From a virus: a stretch of DNA of 64,000 bases. The first letter of the stretch is position 1, and the number at the start of each line of letters is the position of its first letter. Made by a program: the position numbers and the translations under genes. The notes beneath the pieces are model-generated. The model was given only the letters and a program-made list of their open reading frames with translations, had not been told where the DNA came from and made no database searches. The DNA is taken from UHGV virus genome UHGV-0033546. One strand, 5' to 3'. Shown here in pieces: positions 1,937-59,274 of the stretch.

Positions 1937-2568
1937 TCAACTACCTCAATATCATAAACTCTAAATGTTCCAAATGAATCGTGTAATTTTTCTTTTGAAA
2001 TAGAAGTTATTTTATACTTTCCAATTGGAACCATCCATTCTTGTTCATGTACAATCATCATTAAGTTATCAGTACGTTCTGAATCTAATCCATCAGTATC
2101 TTCATATGTATACTTGAACTCAGTATTTGGAGAAGAAAGTATAATATCGCTGATATGGTCAGAGTAATTAAAAGCTTTATCAGTTTTTAAGCGAAATATT
2201 ATTTCAGTGAAATATTCAGCATAAGAAAAAGAGCATGCTGTATGCAAACTAGTAGTAAATGAATCTACTCTATTCGTTGAAAACACTTCTCCAACTTGCA
2301 AATCTTTAATGAGTTCTTTTGTCGATTTTGATATACCACGATATAGCTGATAAGGTGATTTAGTTAAATGCTTTTTAACGATTTTATTCAACTGCCGATG
2401 AAGAGCTTCATTCTTTTTGGCTTCCATACATTGCCAAAGAATTGACTGTTCAAAGTCAGTAAATTTTTCACAGACCTTTTTATACATATCATATTGAAAA
2501 TCGACGCTTTCAGCTTTTATAGATAACTGTTCAACATCTGCAGGATTAATAATCATGATAGCCTCCAT
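1933..2568 (-). CDS. modB: ADP-ribosyltransferase ModB-like
   Basis: 211 aa paralog of adjacent ART: YRGIS, STN, EQEWMVP motifs. Confidence 0.6.
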   Translation of the reverse strand: MEAIMIINPADVEQLSIKAESVDFQYDMYKKVCEKFTDFEQSILWQCMEAKKNEALHRQLNKIVKKHLTKSPYQLYRGISKSTKELIKDLQVGEVFSTNRVDSFTTSLHTACSFSYAEYFTEIIFRLKTDKAFNYSDHISDIILSSPNTEFKYTYEDTDGLDSERTDNLMMIVHEQEWMVPIGKYKITSISKEKLHDSFGTFRVYDIEVVE

Positions 2569-2623
2569 ATACTTCAGAAGCTATCATATCATCGTTAGGA
2601 AGGAAAGTAAACAACTTTTTGAA

Positions 2624-2806
2624 TTATTTTGCCCAGGGAGCCCAGGGCGGAGGGTCAAGATGGTATGAAGCTAGTTCTTCTAGAAGAGCATCTGGGGCTT
2701 CAATTCCATAATTCTGTAATACTATACGGTACTCTTTCTTATAATCACTAGAATCATTCTGGATATTCGTAGAATGATTATCTTCTAACATCTCAAATAA
2801 ATCCAT
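2624..2806 (-). CDS. hypothetical protein
   Basis: 60-aa acidic ORF(-). Confidence 0.45.
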   Translation of the reverse strand: MDLFEMLEDNHSTNIQNDSSDYKKEYRIVLQNYGIEAPDALLEELASYHLDPPPWAPWAK

Positions 2807-2814
2807 ATTAATTC

Positions 2815-3285
2815 CTAGCGATAAAAACCAAAATGACGATTAGCTTCAACAATCTTTCTTTCTTCTTCGGACATTCTCCAACGTAGTCCAACATCAAAAT
2901 GAGCCCAGACCATCTTAACAAATGCATTTATATCTTTAATATCTTCAATAATGAATGTTTTACTTTTAGAAGGCTGACTCACTAATTTAACTTTATCATC
3001 TTCAAACAAGTCAAAAAGACCGTATTCATGAGCTCTTTTATATCCTTTAATAGTTAAAGCTTCGGAAGAAGAAAACGGTGAATCCGTATTATGCAAAATA
3101 TCTTCAGTATGCTTTATAATTAGAATAACATTTTCTGGATATTTTCTTTCTTTTATATCTTTAATTAAAATATCCGGATTTTCTGCTAAAGGAATAATTA
3201 ATGAGCAATTTTTATCGAGCGTATTTACTGATTTACCTTCTTTAGACATAAATTCTATTGAATAGTGTTTTGCTACTTCAATCAT
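2815..3285 (-). CDS. hypothetical protein
   Basis: 156-aa ORF(-); start overlaps stop of upstream small ORF (ATGATTGA). Confidence 0.55.
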
Positions 3286-5032: not shown

Positions 5033-5551
5033 TTAATAACCTCTGTCTTGACGTGCGAAATTTTCTGCATTTTTCAGATAATAAAGTTTAAAGATTTCTT
5101 CAGCAGTAAGACCAAGACCTTGAAACATATTCAGAACGAAATGAAGAATATCAATCATTTCAAATTTAATTTCCAACTGGTCTTGCGGAGACAAATCAGT
5201 AATCAGAGTTTCACGGCGTTCACCATGTTGCGACTTCCAAGGTTTCCATACAGCAGATGCATCTTTTTCGCCATTGCTCATACCACCAAGAGAAGTCAGA
5301 AGTTCACGGAATTCATCATCAATATAGTCTTTCTGATTACGTAGCCAATCAACAACTTCACCGGCAGTAGCCAAATCATCAGGATGACGGTTATATTCAG
5401 GTTTATCTTTAGCTAAACGAACCTGTAAAGATTTCTGCATATCAAGCATAACCTGCAGCGGGTCTTTTTCATCACCGAGAATATCCCAGTATTCATTTTG
5501 AGCTTTATCAGCGCCTTCGATCAGTTGTGAACATTCGTTAAAGTATGCCAT
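5033..5551 (-). CDS. 56: dCTPase/dCTP pyrophosphatase gp56
   Basis: start re-assigned to internal ATG 5551 (MAYFNEC..., AAGGA SD); strong match to recalled T4 gp56. Confidence 0.85.
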   Translation of the reverse strand: MAYFNECSQLIEGADKAQNEYWDILGDEKDPLQVMLDMQKSLQVRLAKDKPEYNRHPDDLATAGEVVDWLRNQKDYIDDEFRELLTSLGGMSNGEKDASAVWKPWKSQHGERRETLITDLSPQDQLEIKFEMIDILHFVLNMFQGLGLTAEEIFKLYYLKNAENFARQDRGY

Positions 5552-5585
5552 TATTTTTCCTTTCAATTCATGGGTTAGTAGATTA

Positions 5586-5609
5586 ATTATACAATAAATA
5601 TATAAAGCA
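5586..5609 (-). promoter_or_regulatory. MotA-dependent middle promoter upstream of gene 56
   Basis: minus strand TGCTTTA (MotA box), 11 nt, TATAAT. Confidence 0.5.
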
Positions 5610-5622
5610 ATAAGGAGGACAT

Positions 5623-5823
5623 ATGGTACAAAAATTAATGGCACTTGTCAATGCCATAAAAGGTAATAAAAAGCGTATAGCTTTTACTATTTCTGCTATG
5701 GTAGGAATTTTACTCTGGAACTTTATTTTATCGCCAATTGCTATTGCTCATGGCGTCAATATTCCAGTAGTTACTCTTGATACATTCGTAGATTTAGCAT
5801 TTGCTTTAGTTGGGCTAATTTAA
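5623..5823 (+). CDS. hypothetical small membrane protein on opposite strand (66 aa)
   Basis: plus ORF in 56-61 intergenic gap; AAGGAGG 4 nt before ATG; two hydrophobic segments; SD overlaps minus promoter, so could be fortuitous. Confidence 0.3.
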   Translation: MVQKLMALVNAIKGNKKRIAFTISAMVGILLWNFILSPIAIAHGVNIPVVTLDTFVDLAFALVGLI

Positions 5824-6848
5824 ATTTTGGCATATTTAGATAGCCGCATTTTAGCCATTAACCCCTGGGCAATATTATTTTTCATATATTCCATAATTTG
5901 TTCAGGGGTTGCACCTTCCTTTCTAATCATATCATTAACATCTTTTGATTTCCAGGGAGATTTATCCCAGAACATAACCCTTTCTCCTGCATTGACTAAT
6001 TTAGTCATTCGCTTAATAGTGTCAGGATGACGAGGTTCATTATCTAAGACCCACACACGTCTATCTTTAAATGGAACAATTTCTAGGTCTAATTGACCAC
6101 CCGTAATAGCTATACCATTTTCAATAAAAAGTGAATCTATAGGTCCTTCTAGAACATATACATCACCATCTTTAACTCGTTCGACTCCATATATTTTTGT
6201 TGCCTCAGGATAAGCTTTAATGGTGATATATTTTTGAGGAGCATCTTTCTTTAATGCACGTCCTTGAAAAGACTCAGCTTTTCCATTAGCATTATAAATT
6301 GGAATAACAAGACGAGGCTCAGAAATTTCCTTTTTGTATGTTCCTGGTGCTATACTATTAACCAATTTTGGCCATTCAGTTGTAAACCAAAGATATTTCC
6401 ATTTATCCTTTGGAATACAACGAGCTTTTACGTATTTTATAATTGGATGGTCTTCCGCCAGTTTATCTAATCTAACACATGACGGAAGAGATTTAATTAT
6501 TTTCTTCTCAGGCTGTTTAGGAAGTTCTTTAGGTTTTTCTACTGGACGACTTTTACCTTTTTCTTTTCTTATTTCAAAGATATACTCGCGATATAAATCA
6601 GGTTCAAACTCCTTTAAATATATTCCGATTGGTGCATGATAGTTACAGTTATAACAATGAATATTTCCTTCATTATTATCGCCATAATACCATCCACGGG
6701 CTTTATTTTGATCGGTTTTTGAATCTCCACAAACAGGGCATCTAAACCGCAATTTAAAAGTTGAACTATTATTTACTTGTGTGAATTTAGGTAAATGAGC
6801 CAATGCACGGTATGCAAACTCATTATCAATCCAAGGTATTGATGACAT
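5820..6848 (-). CDS. 61: DNA primase gp61
   Basis: 342 aa; zinc ribbon CPVCGDS...CYNCNYH; TOPRIM-like region. Confidence 0.9.
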   Translation of the reverse strand: MSSIPWIDNEFAYRALAHLPKFTQVNNSSTFKLRFRCPVCGDSKTDQNKARGWYYGDNNEGNIHCYNCNYHAPIGIYLKEFEPDLYREYIFEIRKEKGKSRPVEKPKELPKQPEKKIIKSLPSCVRLDKLAEDHPIIKYVKARCIPKDKWKYLWFTTEWPKLVNSIAPGTYKKEISEPRLVIPIYNANGKAESFQGRALKKDAPQKYITIKAYPEATKIYGVERVKDGDVYVLEGPIDSLFIENGIAITGGQLDLEIVPFKDRRVWVLDNEPRHPDTIKRMTKLVNAGERVMFWDKSPWKSKDVNDMIRKEGATPEQIMEYMKNNIAQGLMAKMRLSKYAKI

Positions 6849-6850
6849 TT

Positions 6851-7015
6851 TTACTCTTCTTTTTCTTTAGATTCCTCTTTTTTCTTTTTAGGAATCTGTT
6901 CAGGACCTTTATTTACTACAGCACCTGACGTTGTTCCAGTAGAGATATTTTCAGGATTACCACCTGAATCTCCAGCTACCATATCTTCTTTAATAAATTC
7001 TTTATATGTTTTCAT
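6851..7015 (-). CDS. hypothetical small protein (61.1 position) with capsid-targeting-like N-terminus
   Basis: 54 aa MKTYKEFIKEDMVAG...; ATG 1 nt after upstream stop; stop 2 nt before gene 61 ATG. Confidence 0.5.
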   Translation of the reverse strand: MKTYKEFIKEDMVAGDSGGNPENISTGTTSGAVVNKGPEQIPKKKKEESKEKEE

Positions 7016-7016
7016 A

Positions 7017-7373
7017 TTAACCTCTATTCATAAAAGCATTAAAAATTTGGTCATCAATCGATGGAATAGCAACTTTTTCTGCATCATTTAGCAAATCATT
7101 AATTTCATCAGATAGCATAACACATGTACCTTTATTTCCTGTAATTGTTACTGCACAATTACGAACGTTTTCTTTATCAAATTTTAGGTTAATATTTTCG
7201 TAGTGAAAATCCTTTAATGCCGAATATATTTTTAAAATGAAATTGTCTTTTACTACAATAAACCCAACCTCGCTATTAAAACGTGGTTCATGGAAGCTGT
7301 AATAAATCTTTTCATCTATGAAATCGTATGAAATTTTTTCCAATTTTAAATATGAAAATTCAGAACTATACAT
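7017..7373 (-). CDS. hypothetical protein (61.2 position; possible AdfA-like anti-DarT factor by position only)
   Basis: 118-aa ORF(-). Confidence 0.5.
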   Translation of the reverse strand: MYSSEFSYLKLEKISYDFIDEKIYYSFHEPRFNSEVGFIVVKDNFILKIYSALKDFHYENINLKFDKENVRNCAVTITGNKGTCVMLSDEINDLLNDAEKVAIPSIDDQIFNAFMNRG

Positions 7374-7385
7374 ACTAACCTCTAA

Positions 7386-7679
7386 TTATTCACCTACCAC
7401 TTCAGCGATGATATTTTTATTATTAAAGTTTTTATCGCAATACAGAACATAATTATATTGCATTACACCACCAGATTTAAGCTGTTTTTGCACTTCAGCT
7501 TTCATTTCAGGACGATCACGCTCAACGATATTCATAATATCTGCTTCAATTTGAGTTTCAACTTCAGTCTGATCCGCAGTCATAGACCATTCGCACAAAT
7601 CTTTATCATAACCTGCCATGGCAGGCTGAGCAGCACAAGAAGATAAAGCAAAAATTGCAGCAAAGATAAATTTTTTCAT
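7386..7679 (-). CDS. sp: periplasmic spackle protein Sp (superinfection exclusion)
   Basis: 97 aa with signal peptide MKKFIFAAIFALSSCAAQPAMA; size and position match T4 sp (61.3). Confidence 0.65.
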   Translation of the reverse strand: MKKFIFAAIFALSSCAAQPAMAGYDKDLCEWSMTADQTEVETQIEADIMNIVERDRPEMKAEVQKQLKSGGVMQYNYVLYCDKNFNNKNIIAEVVGE

Positions 7680-7705
7680 GATAATCTCCTCAGTAGTTTA
7701 TGTTT

Positions 7706-7735
7706 ATAGTATCTCAATTTCCTGCAAAAGTAAAC
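7706..7735 (-). promoter_or_regulatory. T4-type early promoter
   Basis: minus strand GTTTAC, 18 nt, TACTAT. Confidence 0.5.
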
Positions 7736-7737
7736 AG

Positions 7738-7995
7738 TTATTTTAAAACTTCTGCATAATCACATGTTACAAACTGTTTCTCTAACTTGACGATTTTACG
7801 AAAGTATCTTTTGCATTGGCGAATCTGTCGCTTCGTAGGGCGCACAGCAAACTTAATAAATTCCGCTCGACCAAATGGAGGGCTTTCTTCTGCCGGAATA
7901 TCTAATACTAATTCCCACGTATCTGCAATAAGTGCTTTGAATTGTGTATTTTTCCTGACGTTATACGGAGTAGGTTTAAATAAAACAATATGCAT
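7738..7995 (-). CDS. hypothetical protein (61.4 position; possible TifA-like by position only)
   Basis: 85 aa from ATG 7995 (GAGGA SD, 1 nt after dmd stop); longer ATG at 8037 lacks SD. Confidence 0.5.
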   Translation of the reverse strand: MHIVLFKPTPYNVRKNTQFKALIADTWELVLDIPAEESPPFGRAEFIKFAVRPTKRQIRQCKRYFRKIVKLEKQFVTCDYAEVLK

Positions 7996-7996
7996 A

Positions 7997-8179
7997 TTAT
8001 CCTCGGCAATCCACTTCACATACTTTCTTGCCATCAATGAAAGCTTTAACTAATGCTTTATTAACTTCAGCATATTGAGTAGTAGCCCATTGAACGTCAT
8101 CTTTCATCATTGTGATTTCTTTAGTAAACATGCTTTCGTTCTTAAACCACCCCATAAAAACTACCTTTACCAATTCCAT
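7997..8179 (-). CDS. dmd: Dmd-like antitoxin (discriminator of mRNA degradation)
   Basis: 60 aa MELVKVVFMGWF...; size and position next to gene 41 as T4 dmd (61.5). Confidence 0.6.
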   Translation of the reverse strand: MELVKVVFMGWFKNESMFTKEITMMKDDVQWATTQYAEVNKALVKAFIDGKKVCEVDCRG

Positions 8180-8208: not shown

Positions 8209-8238
8209 ACTATACCATAATCTTGTCAGCTTGTAAAC
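8209..8238 (-). promoter_or_regulatory. T4-type early promoter
   Basis: minus strand GTTTACA, 18 nt, TGG-TATAGT, overlapping 3' end of gene 41. Confidence 0.55.
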
Positions 8239-9665
8239 TAAAATTTTAATTCATTTGCCAAAGCATCTAACTGAGCTCGAGCGGATTCGTTTCTTTGATA
8301 GCGGTTCTGTTCAGCTTGAATCTGCTGTGAACCTGCTACTTCGTTCACTTCGGTTGGAGTAGAATCTTGTTCAATTTCTACCCATTTCTGATTTCCTTTT
8401 TGAACACCCATCAAAAACTTATTCCATTTATTCTTATCACCATATCGTGATTTGATTTGCTTAATGAGTTGTTGTTCAGCAGCTGCTAACTCTTCAGTTT
8501 CAATGACCGCAAGCATAAAATCGGCTGTCGCTGGAAGACCAGCAGATTCTGCTATATCACTCATGTTAACATCAGAAGAGTCCCAAGCTTGTTTACCAAC
8601 CTGCGCTGCAGTCCAAAGAACAGTTTCAGTTTCAACAGCCAGAGCACGTAATTCCTCTGCAATAGCTTTAACAGTTGTGTAACTATTTTCTGAATAAACT
8701 CGGATGCGGCACGATTTACAAATACCTAGATAGTCGACAATAATGATTGTTGGAACAAAATTCTTCTTGAGCTTCAATTCATTCAAGAGAGACCTGAATG
8801 TGTTAGCATCTGCTCCACCAGTAGGATACTGTTTAACAATTAAACGACCGAGAGTAGATTTCTCACGCCATTTTTCCATTTTTCCTTTATACTCAGCGTA
8901 AGAAATATGCCCATCATCAATGTCATCAAGAGAAACATCAAGCATATTAGCATCAATGCGCTTAGCACAGACTTCTTCTGCCATTTCCATGGAAATGTAA
9001 AGAACATTATGTCCAAGCTGCAAATAATCTGCTGCTAATGAACACAATCCTAATGACTTACCAACGTTAACACCAGCCATTAAAACGTTCAGTGTTCCAG
9101 TCTCAGCTCCGCCTTTAGTAATTTTATTCAGAATTTTGAGTCTAAATGGAACCTTACGAGCTTTATTCATATAAGATAGCCAACGTGCTTCGTAGTCATC
9201 CATCCAATCATGGCCAACGTAGCTATCAAATGAAATTGATAATGCTTGACGCATGATGTCAGGAATAGCACCTACATCTGGCATTTTCTTATTTCGTTTT
9301 TCCGGAGGAAGCTCAGCATTGGTTTGAATTTCAATTATTTTAGACGTAGCATTAAACATCGCCCTTTGCTGAACATATTTTTCTGTTTCTTTTACTAACC
9401 AACTGTGGTCTTCCGGAGAATCAGCTAGTTTTGAAATAAGTGTTTTTACACCAGAATATTCTGTTTCAGTAAATGAACTATTTTCTAATGCAACATTTAA
9501 CGCATTAATAGATGGAACGCTATGGTACTCATTGACATGAGATTTAATTAATTTGAATGTATTTTTAGCTGGACCACTTTCAAAATATTCTGAATCCATA
9601 TATGGCCAAACTTTTGAAAAATAAGCTTGATCAAATATGAGATGAGAAAGAATAATTTCTACCAC
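8238..9665 (-). CDS. 41: replicative DNA helicase gp41
   Basis: 475 aa; DnaB-family Walker A GVNVGKS; matches recalled T4 gp41. Confidence 0.9.
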   Translation of the reverse strand: MVEIILSHLIFDQAYFSKVWPYMDSEYFESGPAKNTFKLIKSHVNEYHSVPSINALNVALENSSFTETEYSGVKTLISKLADSPEDHSWLVKETEKYVQQRAMFNATSKIIEIQTNAELPPEKRNKKMPDVGAIPDIMRQALSISFDSYVGHDWMDDYEARWLSYMNKARKVPFRLKILNKITKGGAETGTLNVLMAGVNVGKSLGLCSLAADYLQLGHNVLYISMEMAEEVCAKRIDANMLDVSLDDIDDGHISYAEYKGKMEKWREKSTLGRLIVKQYPTGGADANTFRSLLNELKLKKNFVPTIIIVDYLGICKSCRIRVYSENSYTTVKAIAEELRALAVETETVLWTAAQVGKQAWDSSDVNMSDIAESAGLPATADFMLAVIETEELAAAEQQLIKQIKSRYGDKNKWNKFLMGVQKGNQKWVEIEQDSTPTEVNEVAGSQQIQAEQNRYQRNESARAQLDALANELKF

Positions 9666-11270: not shown

Positions 11271-12119
11271 TTAATCAACTGCTATTGGATGAATAGCATT
11301 AAACTTATGAAATGCTTCTGATTTTTCTTTACGCGAAACACACATACGAAGAACCTTTAATGGCTCGTCTTCTTCACCCAACGATTTTCGTTTTTCAATA
11401 TTAGAAGTTTTCCAACGAGCTTGCTCTGGAAACTCTCTATTGATTTGCTCAAGAGCTCTATTATGTTTTGAATTACTACGAATTGAACTACACCCACCAG
11501 GAGCTTGTGCTTTTCCAGATACAACTAGATATTTGAACAAGGCCAAATGCGGATAACCTTGATTAATTAAATTGAGAAATGCATACATATCTTCGCATAA
11601 ATCAATTTTTCCATACCCAATTTGTTCTGTGGTAAGTTTTCCTAAATCATACCATGTATTTGTGAATCCATATGAATTTTCACGATAATTACCCCAAGAT
11701 GAAGTAATTTTAAAAATTGGTAGACGAGCATGGCCATGATAATACCCGCAATCCATGGCATCTTCAACGTATTGAATCAATTCATAGAACTGTTCACGAG
11801 TTAATTGATTAATTTTATCTACGCAGCGACGATCATCTTTCTTTCGCATTGAACTCATACGAATAGTAGTATCATCATCAATCATCCAAATTCGTTGACC
11901 TGCATACATATCAGTAATTGCTTTACGAGTACCAGCAATTCCGTTAACATCATCAGGAATAGTTATAATTTTAGCTCTAGACCCGTAAGCGTCATAATAA
12001 GCTTTTTCTTCATGTTTACGCACTACAATATGGGGTTCATAATCAGTCGGAAACATATCAAGGGCAGAAACTGCCCCGACACGCTGATAACTTGGAATTA
12101 CGAATTGAATCATTTCCAC
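11271..12119 (-). CDS. GT-A-type glycosyltransferase at the beta-gt locus (possible T2/T6-type beta-alpha glucosyltransferase)
   Basis: 282 aa; N-terminal FVIPSYQR and DxD (WMIDDD); not like 351-aa T4 beta-gt. Confidence 0.55.
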   Translation of the reverse strand: MEMIQFVIPSYQRVGAVSALDMFPTDYEPHIVVRKHEEKAYYDAYGSRAKIITIPDDVNGIAGTRKAITDMYAGQRIWMIDDDTTIRMSSMRKKDDRRCVDKINQLTREQFYELIQYVEDAMDCGYYHGHARLPIFKITSSWGNYRENSYGFTNTWYDLGKLTTEQIGYGKIDLCEDMYAFLNLINQGYPHLALFKYLVVSGKAQAPGGCSSIRSNSKHNRALEQINREFPEQARWKTSNIEKRKSLGEEDEPLKVLRMCVSRKEKSEAFHKFNAIHPIAVD

Positions 12120-58252: not shown

Positions 58253-58328
58253 TGGTCGAGGCAGTAGGGATCGAACCTACGACCTAGGACTTAGAAGGTC
58301 CTTGCTCTTCCTTCTGAGCTATGCCCCG
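58253..58328 (-). tRNA. tRNA-Arg (anticodon TCT)
   Basis: manual cloverleaf: acceptor CGGGGCA/TGCCTCG, anticodon loop CTTCTAA, T-loop TTCGATC, CCA encoded. Confidence 0.8.
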
Positions 58329-58332
58329 TAAT

Positions 58333-58408
58333 TGGGGTGACCGATGGGAGTCGAACCCATGACTACGAGAATCACAATCTCGAGTTCTACCAACTGAACT
58401 ACGGCCAC
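58333..58408 (-). tRNA. tRNA-His (anticodon GTG)
   Basis: manual cloverleaf: anticodon loop TTGTGAT, T-arm ATGGG-TTCGACT-CCCAT, discriminator C, CCA encoded. Confidence 0.7.
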
Positions 58409-58522
58409 ATTAATACCTACTCCAACAATCAAGATGTCTTCACACGAAATTAAGAGAAGAATGATCAGTTCAACCCTTATAATCGCGTCAAGTAGATATT
58501 AATGTGACAGTTGTCACAAATT

Positions 58523-58597
58523 TGGCGGACATGCATGGATTCGAACCATGGACCAATTGATTAACAGTCAACTGCTCTACCACTGAGCTACACATCC
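58523..58597 (-). tRNA. tRNA-Asn (anticodon GTT)
   Basis: manual cloverleaf: D-stem GCTC/GAGC, anticodon loop CTGTTAA, T-loop TTCGAAT, CCA encoded. Confidence 0.7.
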
Positions 58598-58601
58598 AAA
58601 T

Positions 58602-58688
58602 TGGTGGGGAGTGATGGAGTCGAACCACCCGAGTCGCAATGACAATGGATTTACAGTCCACACCGCTACCTCTACGGGATAACTCCCC
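58602..58688 (-). tRNA. tRNA-Tyr (anticodon GTA), type II
   Basis: 87 nt; perfect acceptor GGGGAGT/ACTCCCC, anticodon loop CTGTAAA, long variable arm; D-arm pairing imperfect. Confidence 0.6.
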
Positions 58689-58701
58689 CTAATTCATAAT
58701 T

Positions 58702-58776
58702 TGGTGGCCCTGGGTGGAATTGAACCACCATCTGGCGATTATGAGTCGCTTGCTTGAACCTTCCAGCTACAGGGCC
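58702..58776 (-). tRNA. tRNA with anticodon CAT (Ile2-lysidine type or Met)
   Basis: acceptor GGCCCTG/CAGGGCC, anticodon loop CTCATAA, T-arm GGTGG-TTCAATT-CCACC, CCA encoded. Confidence 0.65.
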
Positions 58777-58777
58777 T

Positions 58778-58853
58778 TGGTGCTGATTGACGGAATCGAA
58801 CCGCCGACATCCTCATTACAAGTGAGGTGCTCTACCTACTGAGCTAAATCAGC
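58778..58853 (-). tRNA. tRNA-Thr (anticodon TGT)
   Basis: acceptor GCTGATT/AATCAGC, anticodon loop CTTGTAA, CCA encoded. Confidence 0.8.
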
Positions 58854-58858
58854 AAAAC

Positions 58859-58948
58859 TGGCGGAGGCGATAGGATTTGAACCTATGAGTCGCCGGAGCG
58901 ACTGCCGGTTTTCAAGACCGGTGCATTAAACCACTCTGCCACGCCTCC
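58859..58948 (-). tRNA. tRNA-Ser (anticodon TGA), type II
   Basis: 90 nt; anticodon stem CCGGT/ACCGG, loop CTTGAAA, long variable arm, CCA encoded. Confidence 0.8.
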
Positions 58949-58950
58949 AG

Positions 58951-59024
58951 TCTCCATACAAGGATTTGAACCTTGGACCTCCTGATCCCAAATCAGGCGC
59001 TCTACCAAACTGAGCTACACGGAG
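58951..59024 (-). tRNA. tRNA-Pro (anticodon TGG), CCA not encoded
   Basis: anticodon loop TTTGGGA, T-arm CAAGG-TTCAAAT-CCTTG; 2 nt from tRNA-Ser (dimeric precursor as in T4). Confidence 0.8.
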
Positions 59025-59034
59025 TAAATTAAAT

Positions 59035-59108
<74 letters not shown>

Positions 59109-59113
59109 AAATT

Positions 59114-59200
59114 TGGTGCGAGAAGTGGGACTCGAACCCACAAGGAAATCATTCCGCAGCATTTTAAGTGCTGTGCCTTTACCAATTTGACCATTCTCGC
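59114..59200 (-). tRNA. tRNA-Leu (anticodon TAA), type II
   Basis: 87 nt; anticodon stem CAGCA/TGCTG, loop CTTAAAA, long variable arm, CCA encoded. Confidence 0.8.
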
Positions 59201-59201
59201 G

Positions 59202-59274
59202 CTGGGAATAAAGGACTCGAACCTTTGCATCCTGGAATCAAAATCCAGTGCCTTACCAACTTGGCTAATTCCCA
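59202..59274 (-). tRNA. tRNA-Gln (anticodon TTG), CCA not encoded
   Basis: acceptor TGGGAAT/ATTCCCA, anticodon loop TTTTGAT; 1 nt from tRNA-Leu (dimeric precursor). Confidence 0.8.

Follow-up and report, generated by a model that had tools for sequence, protein, structure and literature searches.

The window analysed here, a 64,000-nt stretch of the virus genome UHGV-0033546, contains between primase gene 61 and helicase gene 41 the packed block of five small genes that the first-pass annotation of this DNA had described. The genes are closely set on the minus strand (6851–8179) of a Tequatrovirus and encode proteins of 54, 118, 97, 85 and 60 aa. The genes, flanks and sequence features considered below are the following:

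5820..6848, minus strand: gene 61, DNA primase, downstream flank (342 aa, 98.8% identical to T4 gp61)
6851..7015, minus strand: 61.1 orthologue, 54 aa (96% identical to T4 gp61.1, 100% to T2)
7013..7061, minus strand: conserved tail SIDDQIFNAFMNRG and TAA-T-ATG coupling to 61.1 (DNA alignment of the window, T4, slur02 and T2)
7017..7373, minus strand: putative single-module AdfA-family paralogue, 118 aa, of the RB32ORF033c / T2 EcT2_00036 type (partial match to Pfam AdfA)
7386..7679, minus strand: sp (spackle), 97 aa, periplasmic gp5 tail lysozyme inhibitor family, signal peptide at residues 1–22
7706..7735, minus strand: T4 early-promoter-like site 5′ of sp (GTTTAC, 18 nt, TACTAT; pattern match)
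7738..7995, minus strand: tifA (61.4), 85 aa, RNA-binding ToxN endoribonuclease inhibitor family, T4-type F41 allele
7997..8179, minus strand: dmd (61.5), 60 aa, antitoxin mimic family, RnlA/LsoA inhibitor (Pfam Dmd, T4 identity, PDB match)
8209..8238, minus strand: T4 early promoter 5′ of dmd-tifA (GTTTAC, 18 nt, TATAGT; TGG directly 5′ of the −10)
8238..9665, minus strand: gene 41, replicative helicase, upstream flank (475 aa, 99.4% identical to T4 gp41)

The genes are separated by 1–2 nt at the 61/61.1, 61.1/118-aa gene and tifA/dmd junctions, by 12 nt between the 118-aa gene and sp, and by 58 nt in both gaps that hold the promoters. A family or homologue match was found for all five ORFs, and their pairwise pN/pS values against T2, T4 and slur02 ranged from 0.00 to 0.26 (from small counts); on these two grounds the ORFs are real genes kept under purifying selection and not chance ORFs. 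None of the five proteins had a match in the NCBIfam or PADLOC scans, and no RNA family was detected in the islet by the Rfam scan. Plus-strand ORFs within the interval (40–88 aa) were also considered; they run antisense to the conserved genes, had no support and were discarded.

The corresponding T4 region, 61.1–61.5, has been named the "anti-TA island" (Srikant, Guegler & Laub 2022, PMC9391042), with adfA being 61.2, tifA 61.4 (85 aa) and dmd 61.5 (PMC9391042), so that the names AdfA and TifA, as attached earlier to 61.2 and 61.4, agree with the literature. The islet shares with it the flanks (41 and 61), the gene order, the strand and the two early promoters. When the proteins were compared with those of T4 61.1–61.5, four of the five were near-identical orthologues (61.1, 96%; spackle, 97%; 61.4/TifA, 97.6%; Dmd, 98%), and for these the earlier equation of the islet with the T4 block stands, whereas for the 118-aa gene it does not: T4 has a 208-aa two-module AdfA, while the window has a single-module paralogue of 118 aa and no full-length adfA. 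In addition, sp and the next gene overlap in T4, in contrast to the 12-nt gap found here.

The two early promoters that had been proposed for the islet, at 7706..7735 and 8209..8238, both fit the T4 early-promoter pattern. For the motif GTTTAC-N16–18-TANNNT, 2.7 matches are expected across the window and 21 were observed; all but one of the 21 lie on the minus strand, and the two sites are among them at exactly these coordinates. In a generic sigma-70 scan 8209–8237 ranked first (10 of 12 matches, TG upstream), and the sp promoter fell under the threshold of the same scan. The −35 of the dmd promoter shares bases with the gene 41 stop codon. In a 91-bp alignment that includes the flanking coding ends, this promoter differs from T4 by three bases and from T2 by one; the site 5′ of sp is kept in both phages apart from changes within the spacer and a 2-bp deletion immediately 3′ of the −10. 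In T4, one early promoter lies upstream of dmd (dmd-61.4) and another downstream of tifA (PMC9391042). By these motifs, the promoter at 8209–8238 would drive dmd and the translationally coupled tifA, while the one at 7706–7735 would serve sp and the 118-aa gene as well as 61.1, which are coupled through stop/start distances of 1–12 nt. Transcription probably runs on into gene 61, because the promoter/terminator scan found no terminator-like site inside the islet.

The 60-aa product, previously thought to look like Dmd, matched Pfam PF17587 over positions 1–60 of 60 (1.4e−45) and PDB 5hy3_B 'Antitoxin Dmd' (1.5e−36), and 59 of its 60 residues are those of T4 Dmd, the sole change being D50G. T4 Dmd binds and neutralises the RnlA/LsoA toxins (PMC9391042), and from the near-identity of the two proteins we infer that Dmd of this phage would bind and neutralise these RNase toxins as well.

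The identification of the 85-aa gene as T4 61.4/TifA was also correct, as the proteins are 85 aa in both phages, match end to end and share 83 residues (Pfam DUF7279, 1.1e−19). The tifA ATG at 7995 has GAGG upstream and lies 1 nt past the dmd stop; a 99-aa 61.4 product starting from a TTG (7738–8037), the form given in the ORF listing, was rejected, as its 5′ end would lie within dmd and the homologues without exception align from the ATG. The Pro-Thr helix cap and the basic residues that are needed for RNA binding and ToxN inhibition (P53/T54 and K55, R56, R59; PMC10853763) are all present. Loop residue 41 is F, the weaker allele carried also by wild-type T4, and not the Ser or His that makes TifA a strong inhibitor (PMC10853763); V44A is found in the same loop. 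The TifA homologues of T2, T4 and T6 (> 96% mutually identical) neutralise ToxN on overexpression (PMC10853763), and T4 is restricted by toxIN, its single-copy tifA being insufficient (PMC9391042). By analogy with its T4 near-twin, TifA would bind RNA and ToxN and so trap the toxin, and one copy of the T4-type F41 allele would probably not be enough against E. coli toxIN; because the single-copy tifA of T4 fails against toxIN, 'anti-ToxIN' describes a latent capacity and not a demonstrated phenotype. A PDB sequence search with TifA found nothing.

The 97-aa protein, noted earlier for a signal peptide and labelled Sp, is indeed Spackle: it matched Pfam T4_Spackle PF25676 over positions 1–96 of 96 (2.8e−45) and PDB 6x6o (1.1e−60), has 94 of its 97 residues in common with T4, and the solved mature chain (7cn6) begins at residue 23. 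T4 Spackle inhibits the gp5 lysozyme and acts as a superinfection exclusion factor (PMC7677548). The near-identical protein of this phage is thus expected to be exported to the periplasm, where it would block the gp5 lysozyme of superinfecting phages. The product of 61.1 has a low-complexity look with a Lys/Glu-rich C-terminus and a full-length match to phrog_1823 (7e−34), and it found no counterpart in Pfam, NCBIfam or PADLOC.

The five-gene architecture, the 118-aa gene included, is identical to that of T2 (AP018813, EcT2_00035-00039), from which the islet proteins differ by point substitutions only (identities of 100% for 61.1, 92% for the 118-aa protein, 98% for Sp, 98% for TifA, and 97% for Dmd). 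For instance, TifA has A44 and E82 in the window vs. V44 and K82 in T2, and Dmd has I22 and G50 vs. T22 and D50. Downstream of gene 61, T2 carries dam, which is absent there in the window. The islets of the slur02 type (approximately 150 phage records) have the same sp, tifA and dmd as well as a 118-aa protein with 116 of 118 identical residues beside 61.1; unlike the window, they carry a full-length adfA directly upstream of the 118-aa gene, both genes ending in the same block of approximately 48 nt. The islet is a known system, a T4-like early-gene cluster between primase and helicase, and its only unusual feature is that a half-size AdfA relative takes the place of full-length AdfA, as in T2.

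By its position, the 118-aa gene had been equated with T4 61.2/AdfA. The T4 protein has 208 aa and matches Pfam AdfA PF23813 over positions 1–211 with 450 bits, whereas the 118-aa protein reaches 34.3 bits, above the 27-bit gathering threshold, and only its residues 24–118 match, to model positions 115–211 of 211. In the pairwise alignment it covers T4 AdfA residues 109–208 only, at 35% identity; 14 of the 36 identical residues fall in the common tail, and the body is only ~25% identical. The counterpart of AdfA residues 1–108 is absent, and with it the two-module architecture of 208–216 aa. Active AdfA alleles carry His164 (RB69 numbering), which enables the binding and neutralisation of DarT1 (PMC11257639 / PMC11825919); this His was not found in the 118-aa protein, the aligned residue being Asn72 (MAFFT) or Cys73 (BLAST). 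The equation with T4 61.2 cannot be kept given the length of 118 vs. 208 aa, the restriction of the match to the C-terminal half and the missing His164, and the gene is, to judge from these alignments, a different, single-module paralogue within the AdfA family and not the T4 61.2 orthologue. Common to the 118-aa protein and AdfA (PF23813; RB69, T4 gp61.2) are the C-terminal module, the invariant DDQIFNAFM tail, the genomic slot between sp and 61.1, and the lack of an enzymatic domain or a solved structural relative; a PDB search with the AdfA-family profile gave no sequence match.

The AF2 model of the 118-aa protein (pLDDT 83.7) has five strands and three helices arranged in one beta5-alpha module, and that of AdfA (pLDDT 70.9, medium confidence) has two such modules. 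The short family and the N-terminal half of AdfA aligned weakly in hhalign (E 2e−3, probability 13%), and an origin of AdfA by internal duplication is suggestive only. The fold matches in BFVD included a 212-aa protein of AdfA length and other tail-bearing proteins. The 118-aa protein would thus consist of one beta5-alpha module and the conserved C-terminal helix, placed in the slot that the two-module AdfA occupies in T4.

The 118-aa gene was found at ≥ 90% identity over its full length in 293 phage records, and the junction between adfA and the 118-aa gene was spanned in 154 of 482 phage records; in slur02 the two lie in tandem. Other phages, including the genus Gaprivervirus, have homologues of 117–125 aa at 42–49% identity. 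An exhaustive HMMER search among 1.8 billion representatives brought up no more than three real relatives of the 118-aa protein and missed full-length AdfA; a word-indexed search retrieved five close clusters only. In the sp-61.1 slot there are at least three common configurations, namely adfA only, the short paralogue only, and both. The ~48-nt tail block that ends the 118-aa gene also ends full-length adfA in other phages, and it is a candidate recombination joint. The tail pattern gave one match (7029–7055), and across genera the amino acids of the tail are kept while their codons change synonymously (tail codon table).

One reading of the 118-aa gene is that it is a true, functional AdfA directed against DarT1, in which case the islet would hold three validated anti-TA activities. 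The score above the Pfam gathering threshold, the shared slot, and the location of specificity residue 164 in the C-terminal module, the very half that the 118-aa protein resembles, speak for it, but the whole N-terminal module is missing and Asn or Cys stands where the His needed for DarT1 binding should be. Moreover, T2, whose copy is 92% identical, is described by its investigators as lacking adfA and becomes ~10^4-fold more sensitive to DarTG1 when adfN is deleted (PMC11257639 / PMC11825919), and since this sensitivity arises despite the 118-aa gene, anti-DarT1 activity at native level is disfavoured. The retention of the gene beside full-length adfA in ~150 phage records speaks for a non-redundant role, and we regard a functional AdfA as improbable here. 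In T4, adfA is dispensable against DarTG1 (PMC11257639 / PMC11825919); a phage with full-length AdfA thus behaves like T2 towards this system, which tempers the argument drawn from T2. The opposite reading, a functionless remnant of adfA decaying after recombination, would account for the resemblance to only half of AdfA, and the identical 3′ end could be a recombination scar. Against it stand pN/pS values of 0.04–0.26 among four phages, the full-length conservation in the 293 records, the diverged homologues of the same size in Gaprivervirus and other phages, a Shine-Dalgarno of its own with a coupled start, a body too far from AdfA for a recent truncation, and a confident, compact AF2 model, and we consider it highly improbable. 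We infer that the single-module paralogue inhibits some toxin, DarT-like or otherwise, by protein binding, and that it would not inhibit DarT1 effectively, at least when natively expressed.

A more general idea, which offers a modest new lead, is that AdfA belongs to a superfamily built like cassettes around a conserved C-terminal tail. The helix S[IV]DDQIFNAFM[NK]R[GD] is common to at least three unrelated-looking bodies (the two-module AdfA of 208–216 aa, the short form of 117–125 aa, and the VR25_038 type of ~122–157 aa). In the protein it could serve as a common functional handle, and its DNA could be the recombination joint through which T-even phages gain, lose or exchange bodies in the sp-61.1 slot. 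Each body would then be directed at a toxin of its own, DarT-like or not, and the 118-aa protein would be a stand-alone inhibitor. We put this forward tentatively, as a scheme that is rather unlikely to hold in full. If the 118-aa gene does encode an inhibitor of different specificity, it would be an added member of the anti-TA island and an example of modular inhibitor cassettes exchanged via a common tail. For annotation pipelines, genes at the '61.2' position are not interchangeable across T-even phages; the short paralogue is matched by Pfam AdfA yet lacks all the features known to matter for DarT1 neutralisation.

Taken as an early cluster between 41 and 61 with members of at least two validated anti-toxin families, an anti-TA island is present in the window (dmd and tifA, together with the AdfA-family gene). 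We consider it highly probable that this is an accessory islet of the 41–61 interval with two early promoters, the Dmd, TifA and Spackle roles known from T4, and a single-module AdfA-family member. The phage carries the usual T-even equipment against toxins, namely Dmd and TifA, together with Spackle, and lacks canonical AdfA; this equipment predicts its behaviour on rnlAB/lsoAB or toxIN hosts. The first-pass view of a dense counter-defence islet is borne out for the dmd and tifA families; it goes too far in that Spackle is a superinfection exclusion protein and the single-copy tifA and adfA of T4 are weak or dispensable. The interval could likewise be seen as a generic hyperplastic region of T-even phages that gathers unrelated early accessory genes and is not a dedicated counter-defence unit, to which we assign a considerable chance, short of even. 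What lies between 41 and 61 differs greatly from phage to phage: RB69 has 11 genes including imm and imm.1, and VR25 also has 11, its tifA-like and AdfA-like genes being arranged differently. Within the window Sp serves superinfection exclusion and 61.1 is without an assigned function; on the other hand, families in which anti-toxin activity has been demonstrated account for two or three of the five genes, and such clustering is what prompted the anti-TA island proposal (PMC9391042). The descriptions as a hyperplastic region and as a dedicated island are mutually compatible.

The window phage is T4-like (Tequatrovirus), and its closest public matches reach only ~96–97% identity, whether over the 1.7 kb surrounding the islet or over the first 25 kb. 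All genes of the interval between helicase 41 and primase 61 lie on the minus strand, and are listed here with protein identities to T4 (NC_000866):

8238-9665, minus strand: helicase 41, 475 aa, 99.4% identical
7997-8179, minus strand: dmd, 60 aa, 98% identical
7738-7995, minus strand: 61.4 (tifA), 85 aa, 97.6% identical
7386-7679, minus strand: sp, 97 aa, 97% identical
7017-7373, minus strand: short AdfA-family gene, 118 aa
6851-7015, minus strand: 61.1, 54 aa, 96% identical
5820-6848, minus strand: primase 61, 342 aa, 98.8% identical

The coordinates, sizes and order of the five genes in the first-pass annotation all agreed with the ORF list, together with the ATG at 7995 for the 85-aa gene. 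This ATG lies 1 nt past the dmd stop with GAGG upstream, and the resulting product aligns with T4 gp61.4 end to end; a 99-aa version from an upstream TTG in the mechanical ORF list was rejected, as that start overlaps dmd. As each of the five has family or homologue support and gave pairwise pN/pS values of 0.00–0.26 in comparisons with T2, T4 and slur02 (small counts), they are real genes.

The same annotation had matched the islet to the T4 61.1-61.5 anti-defence block, and protein comparison bore this out for 61.1, Sp, 61.4 and Dmd (96–98%), but not for the 118-aa gene, whose likeness to 61.2 is partial. The Pfam models Dmd (1e-45) and T4_Spackle (3e-45) were matched in full length by the 60-aa and 97-aa proteins respectively, while 61.4 fell into DUF7279. 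A solved structure exists for Dmd (5hy3_B) as well as for Spackle (6x6o), and the mature Spackle chain 7cn6 starts at residue 23, confirming the proposed signal peptide of Sp (22 residues). The names adfA and tifA given there were also right: Srikant et al. 2022 (PMC9391042) assign 61.2 to adfA, rename the 85-aa product of 61.4 tifA and give 61.5 as dmd, so the idea of an anti-toxin islet is already published. The earlier reading was thus largely right but already in the literature, and its error was to identify the 118-aa gene as T4 AdfA.

T4 AdfA has 208 aa, and only its residues 109–208 align with the 118-aa protein, at 35% identity, with 14 of the 36 identities falling in a shared C-terminal tail. 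Against the 211-position Pfam AdfA model the short protein matched positions 115–211 only (34 bits), compared with 450 bits across the whole model for T4 AdfA. The DarT1-binding residue 164, Arg in the inactive RB69 AdfA (R164) and His in active alleles (PMC11257639 / PMC11825919), aligns to Asn72 or Cys73 depending on the aligner. T2 has its own copy of the 118-aa gene at this position (92% identical to that of the window), and the LeRoux-lab paper describes T2 as naturally lacking an adfA homolog, T2 ΔadfN being ~10^4-fold sensitive to DarTG1 (PMC11257639 / PMC11825919). Despite its full-length AdfA, T4 behaves like T2 in this respect, because AdfA-T4 binds DarT1 weakly (PMC11257639 / PMC11825919). 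In slur02 both genes stand in tandem (sp, adfA of 208 aa, 118-aa gene, 61.1), and of the 482 phage records matched by a query spanning this adfA/118-aa junction, 154 covered at least 80% of it. The 118-aa type was found in 295 records at ≥ 80% identity (293 of them at ≥ 90%) and T4-type AdfA in 232 at ≥ 90%; hence adfA only (T4), the short gene only (window, T2) and both (slur02) are all common configurations. By these comparisons, the 118-aa gene is a paralogue of adfA, not an allele.

The two genes share a ~48-nt 3′ end, TCTATTGATGACCAAATTTTTAATGCTTTTATGAATAGAG(G/A)TTAATATG, which could offer a simple recombinational route for cassette loss or gain. In the AF2 model of the 118-aa protein (pLDDT 83.7, confident), five beta strands are followed by a helix, a short strand, a second helix and, at lower confidence, a C-terminal helix made by the tail. 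In a T4-like AdfA model (pLDDT 70.9) the five-strand-plus-helix pattern occurs twice before the same tail helix, and residue 164/165 sits in the predicted second-module helix. A short-family profile was weakly positive against the AdfA N-terminal half, so that an origin of AdfA by internal duplication of one module is suggestive only. Profile and fold searches of solved structures found none resembling the 118-aa model, which fits the description of AdfA in the literature as lacking structural homologues (PMC11257639 / PMC11825919). Among predicted viral structures it matched a 118-aa homologue, a 212-aa AdfA-length protein and two proteins of 145–157 aa. One of the latter, VR25_038, is encoded directly upstream of a 119-aa short homologue in phage VR25 (Gaprivervirus) and has no detectable sequence likeness to AdfA except the tail VYSVDDQIFNAFMKRD. 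Scanning IMG/VR with the back-translated tail retrieved 16 loci; together with the earlier loci, three body types (208–216, 117–119 and ~122–157 aa) end in S[IV]DDQIFNAFM[NK]R[GD], and in every case a TAA-(T/A)-ATG junction couples the gene to its downstream neighbour. Across genera the codons change synonymously while the peptide stays constant, so the tail is under selection as protein and is more than a DNA joint. This cassette-like AdfA superfamily with a common tail is the only new lead.

In Gaprivervirus (locus L005 of VR25, 2059-3080, and loci L011, L012 and L022), tail-bearing genes of 145–157 and 117–119 aa stand in tandem, directly followed by a tifA-like DUF7279 gene, placing AdfA-like next to TifA-like genes in an order unlike T4. 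In L022 the partner of a 119-aa short form is a 210-aa AdfA.

Both 58-nt gaps contain GTTTAC, 18 nt and a TA-rich hexamer, and the window has 21 matches to GTTTAC-N16-18-TANNNT (2.7 expected), 20 of them on the minus strand, including 7706-7735 and 8209-8238, exactly where early promoters had been proposed. The dmd promoter, near-identical to T4 and T2, ranked first in a generic promoter scan; the sp promoter is conserved with both except that 2 bp are deleted immediately past the -10 element, and scored under the threshold. Early promoters have been described both upstream of dmd and downstream of tifA (PMC9391042), and a generic scan found no terminator-like site within the islet. The likeliest working model has two early units: dmd-tifA would yield Dmd, a predicted RnlA/LsoA inhibitor, and TifA, a latent ToxN inhibitor, while the second, running through sp, the 118-aa gene and 61.1 into 61, would yield Spackle, a single-module AdfA-family protein and gp61.1. 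The 20 minus-strand sites (e.g., 1247, 2583, 4682, 28980, 29419, 33777, 37200, 40155 ... 60644) allow early transcription units to be mapped quickly and could locate further accessory islets.

The basic C-terminal helix of TifA binds RNA, ToxN inhibition needs P53, T54, K55, R56 and R59, and loop residue 41 tunes its strength (F41 of T4 weak, Ser or His stronger; Guegler et al. 2023, PMC10853763). The window TifA keeps all five residues and F41, and carries V44A in the same loop, a change absent from T4 and T2. Since E. coli toxIN restricts wild-type T4, with escape only via dmd-tifA amplification (PMC9391042), we infer from the F41 allele that the window phage would also be restricted at single-copy tifA.

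In the proposed dense counter-defence islet, dmd and tifA belong to anti-toxin families, but Spackle inhibits the gp5 tail-spike lysozyme domain and mediates superinfection exclusion (PMC7677548); it acts on competing phage, not host defence. For 61.1, no Pfam, NCBIfam or PADLOC match and no literature was found. A further, longer PHROG family (phrog_2086) is matched at its C-terminal end (positions 109–154 of 156, 2.6e-16) by gp61.1 residues 8–53, and RB69 is annotated with a 92-aa 'gp61.1', so 61.1, too, may be the short form within a family of longer proteins. The 41-61 interval of other Tevenvirinae holds quite different gene sets (11 genes in RB69, imm and imm.1 among them, and 11 in VR25); rather than a fixed five-gene unit, this is an accessory slot of variable content in which anti-toxin genes are enriched.

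Elsewhere in the window, the stretch from dCTPase (gene 56) to primase 61 (5033-5823) holds only a 66-aa plus-strand ORF (5623-5823; RB32ORF030w type, also in slur02, Sso113 and T2), whereas T4 and T2 have the dam methyltransferase there; tblastn with T2 Dam found no match in the whole 64-kb window. Downstream of uvsX, a 280-aa minus-strand ORF (11274-12113; RB32ORF041c type, 98% identical to T2 EcT2_00043) takes the place of the T4 segA homing endonuclease and beta-glucosyltransferase, neither of which has a match anywhere in the window; we take this position to be the T2/T6-type glucosyltransferase site. Rfam reported 11 clustered tRNA matches on the minus strand at 58256-59274, of which one only just passed the threshold (30.2 bits, 58607-58686); T4 itself has eight tRNAs.
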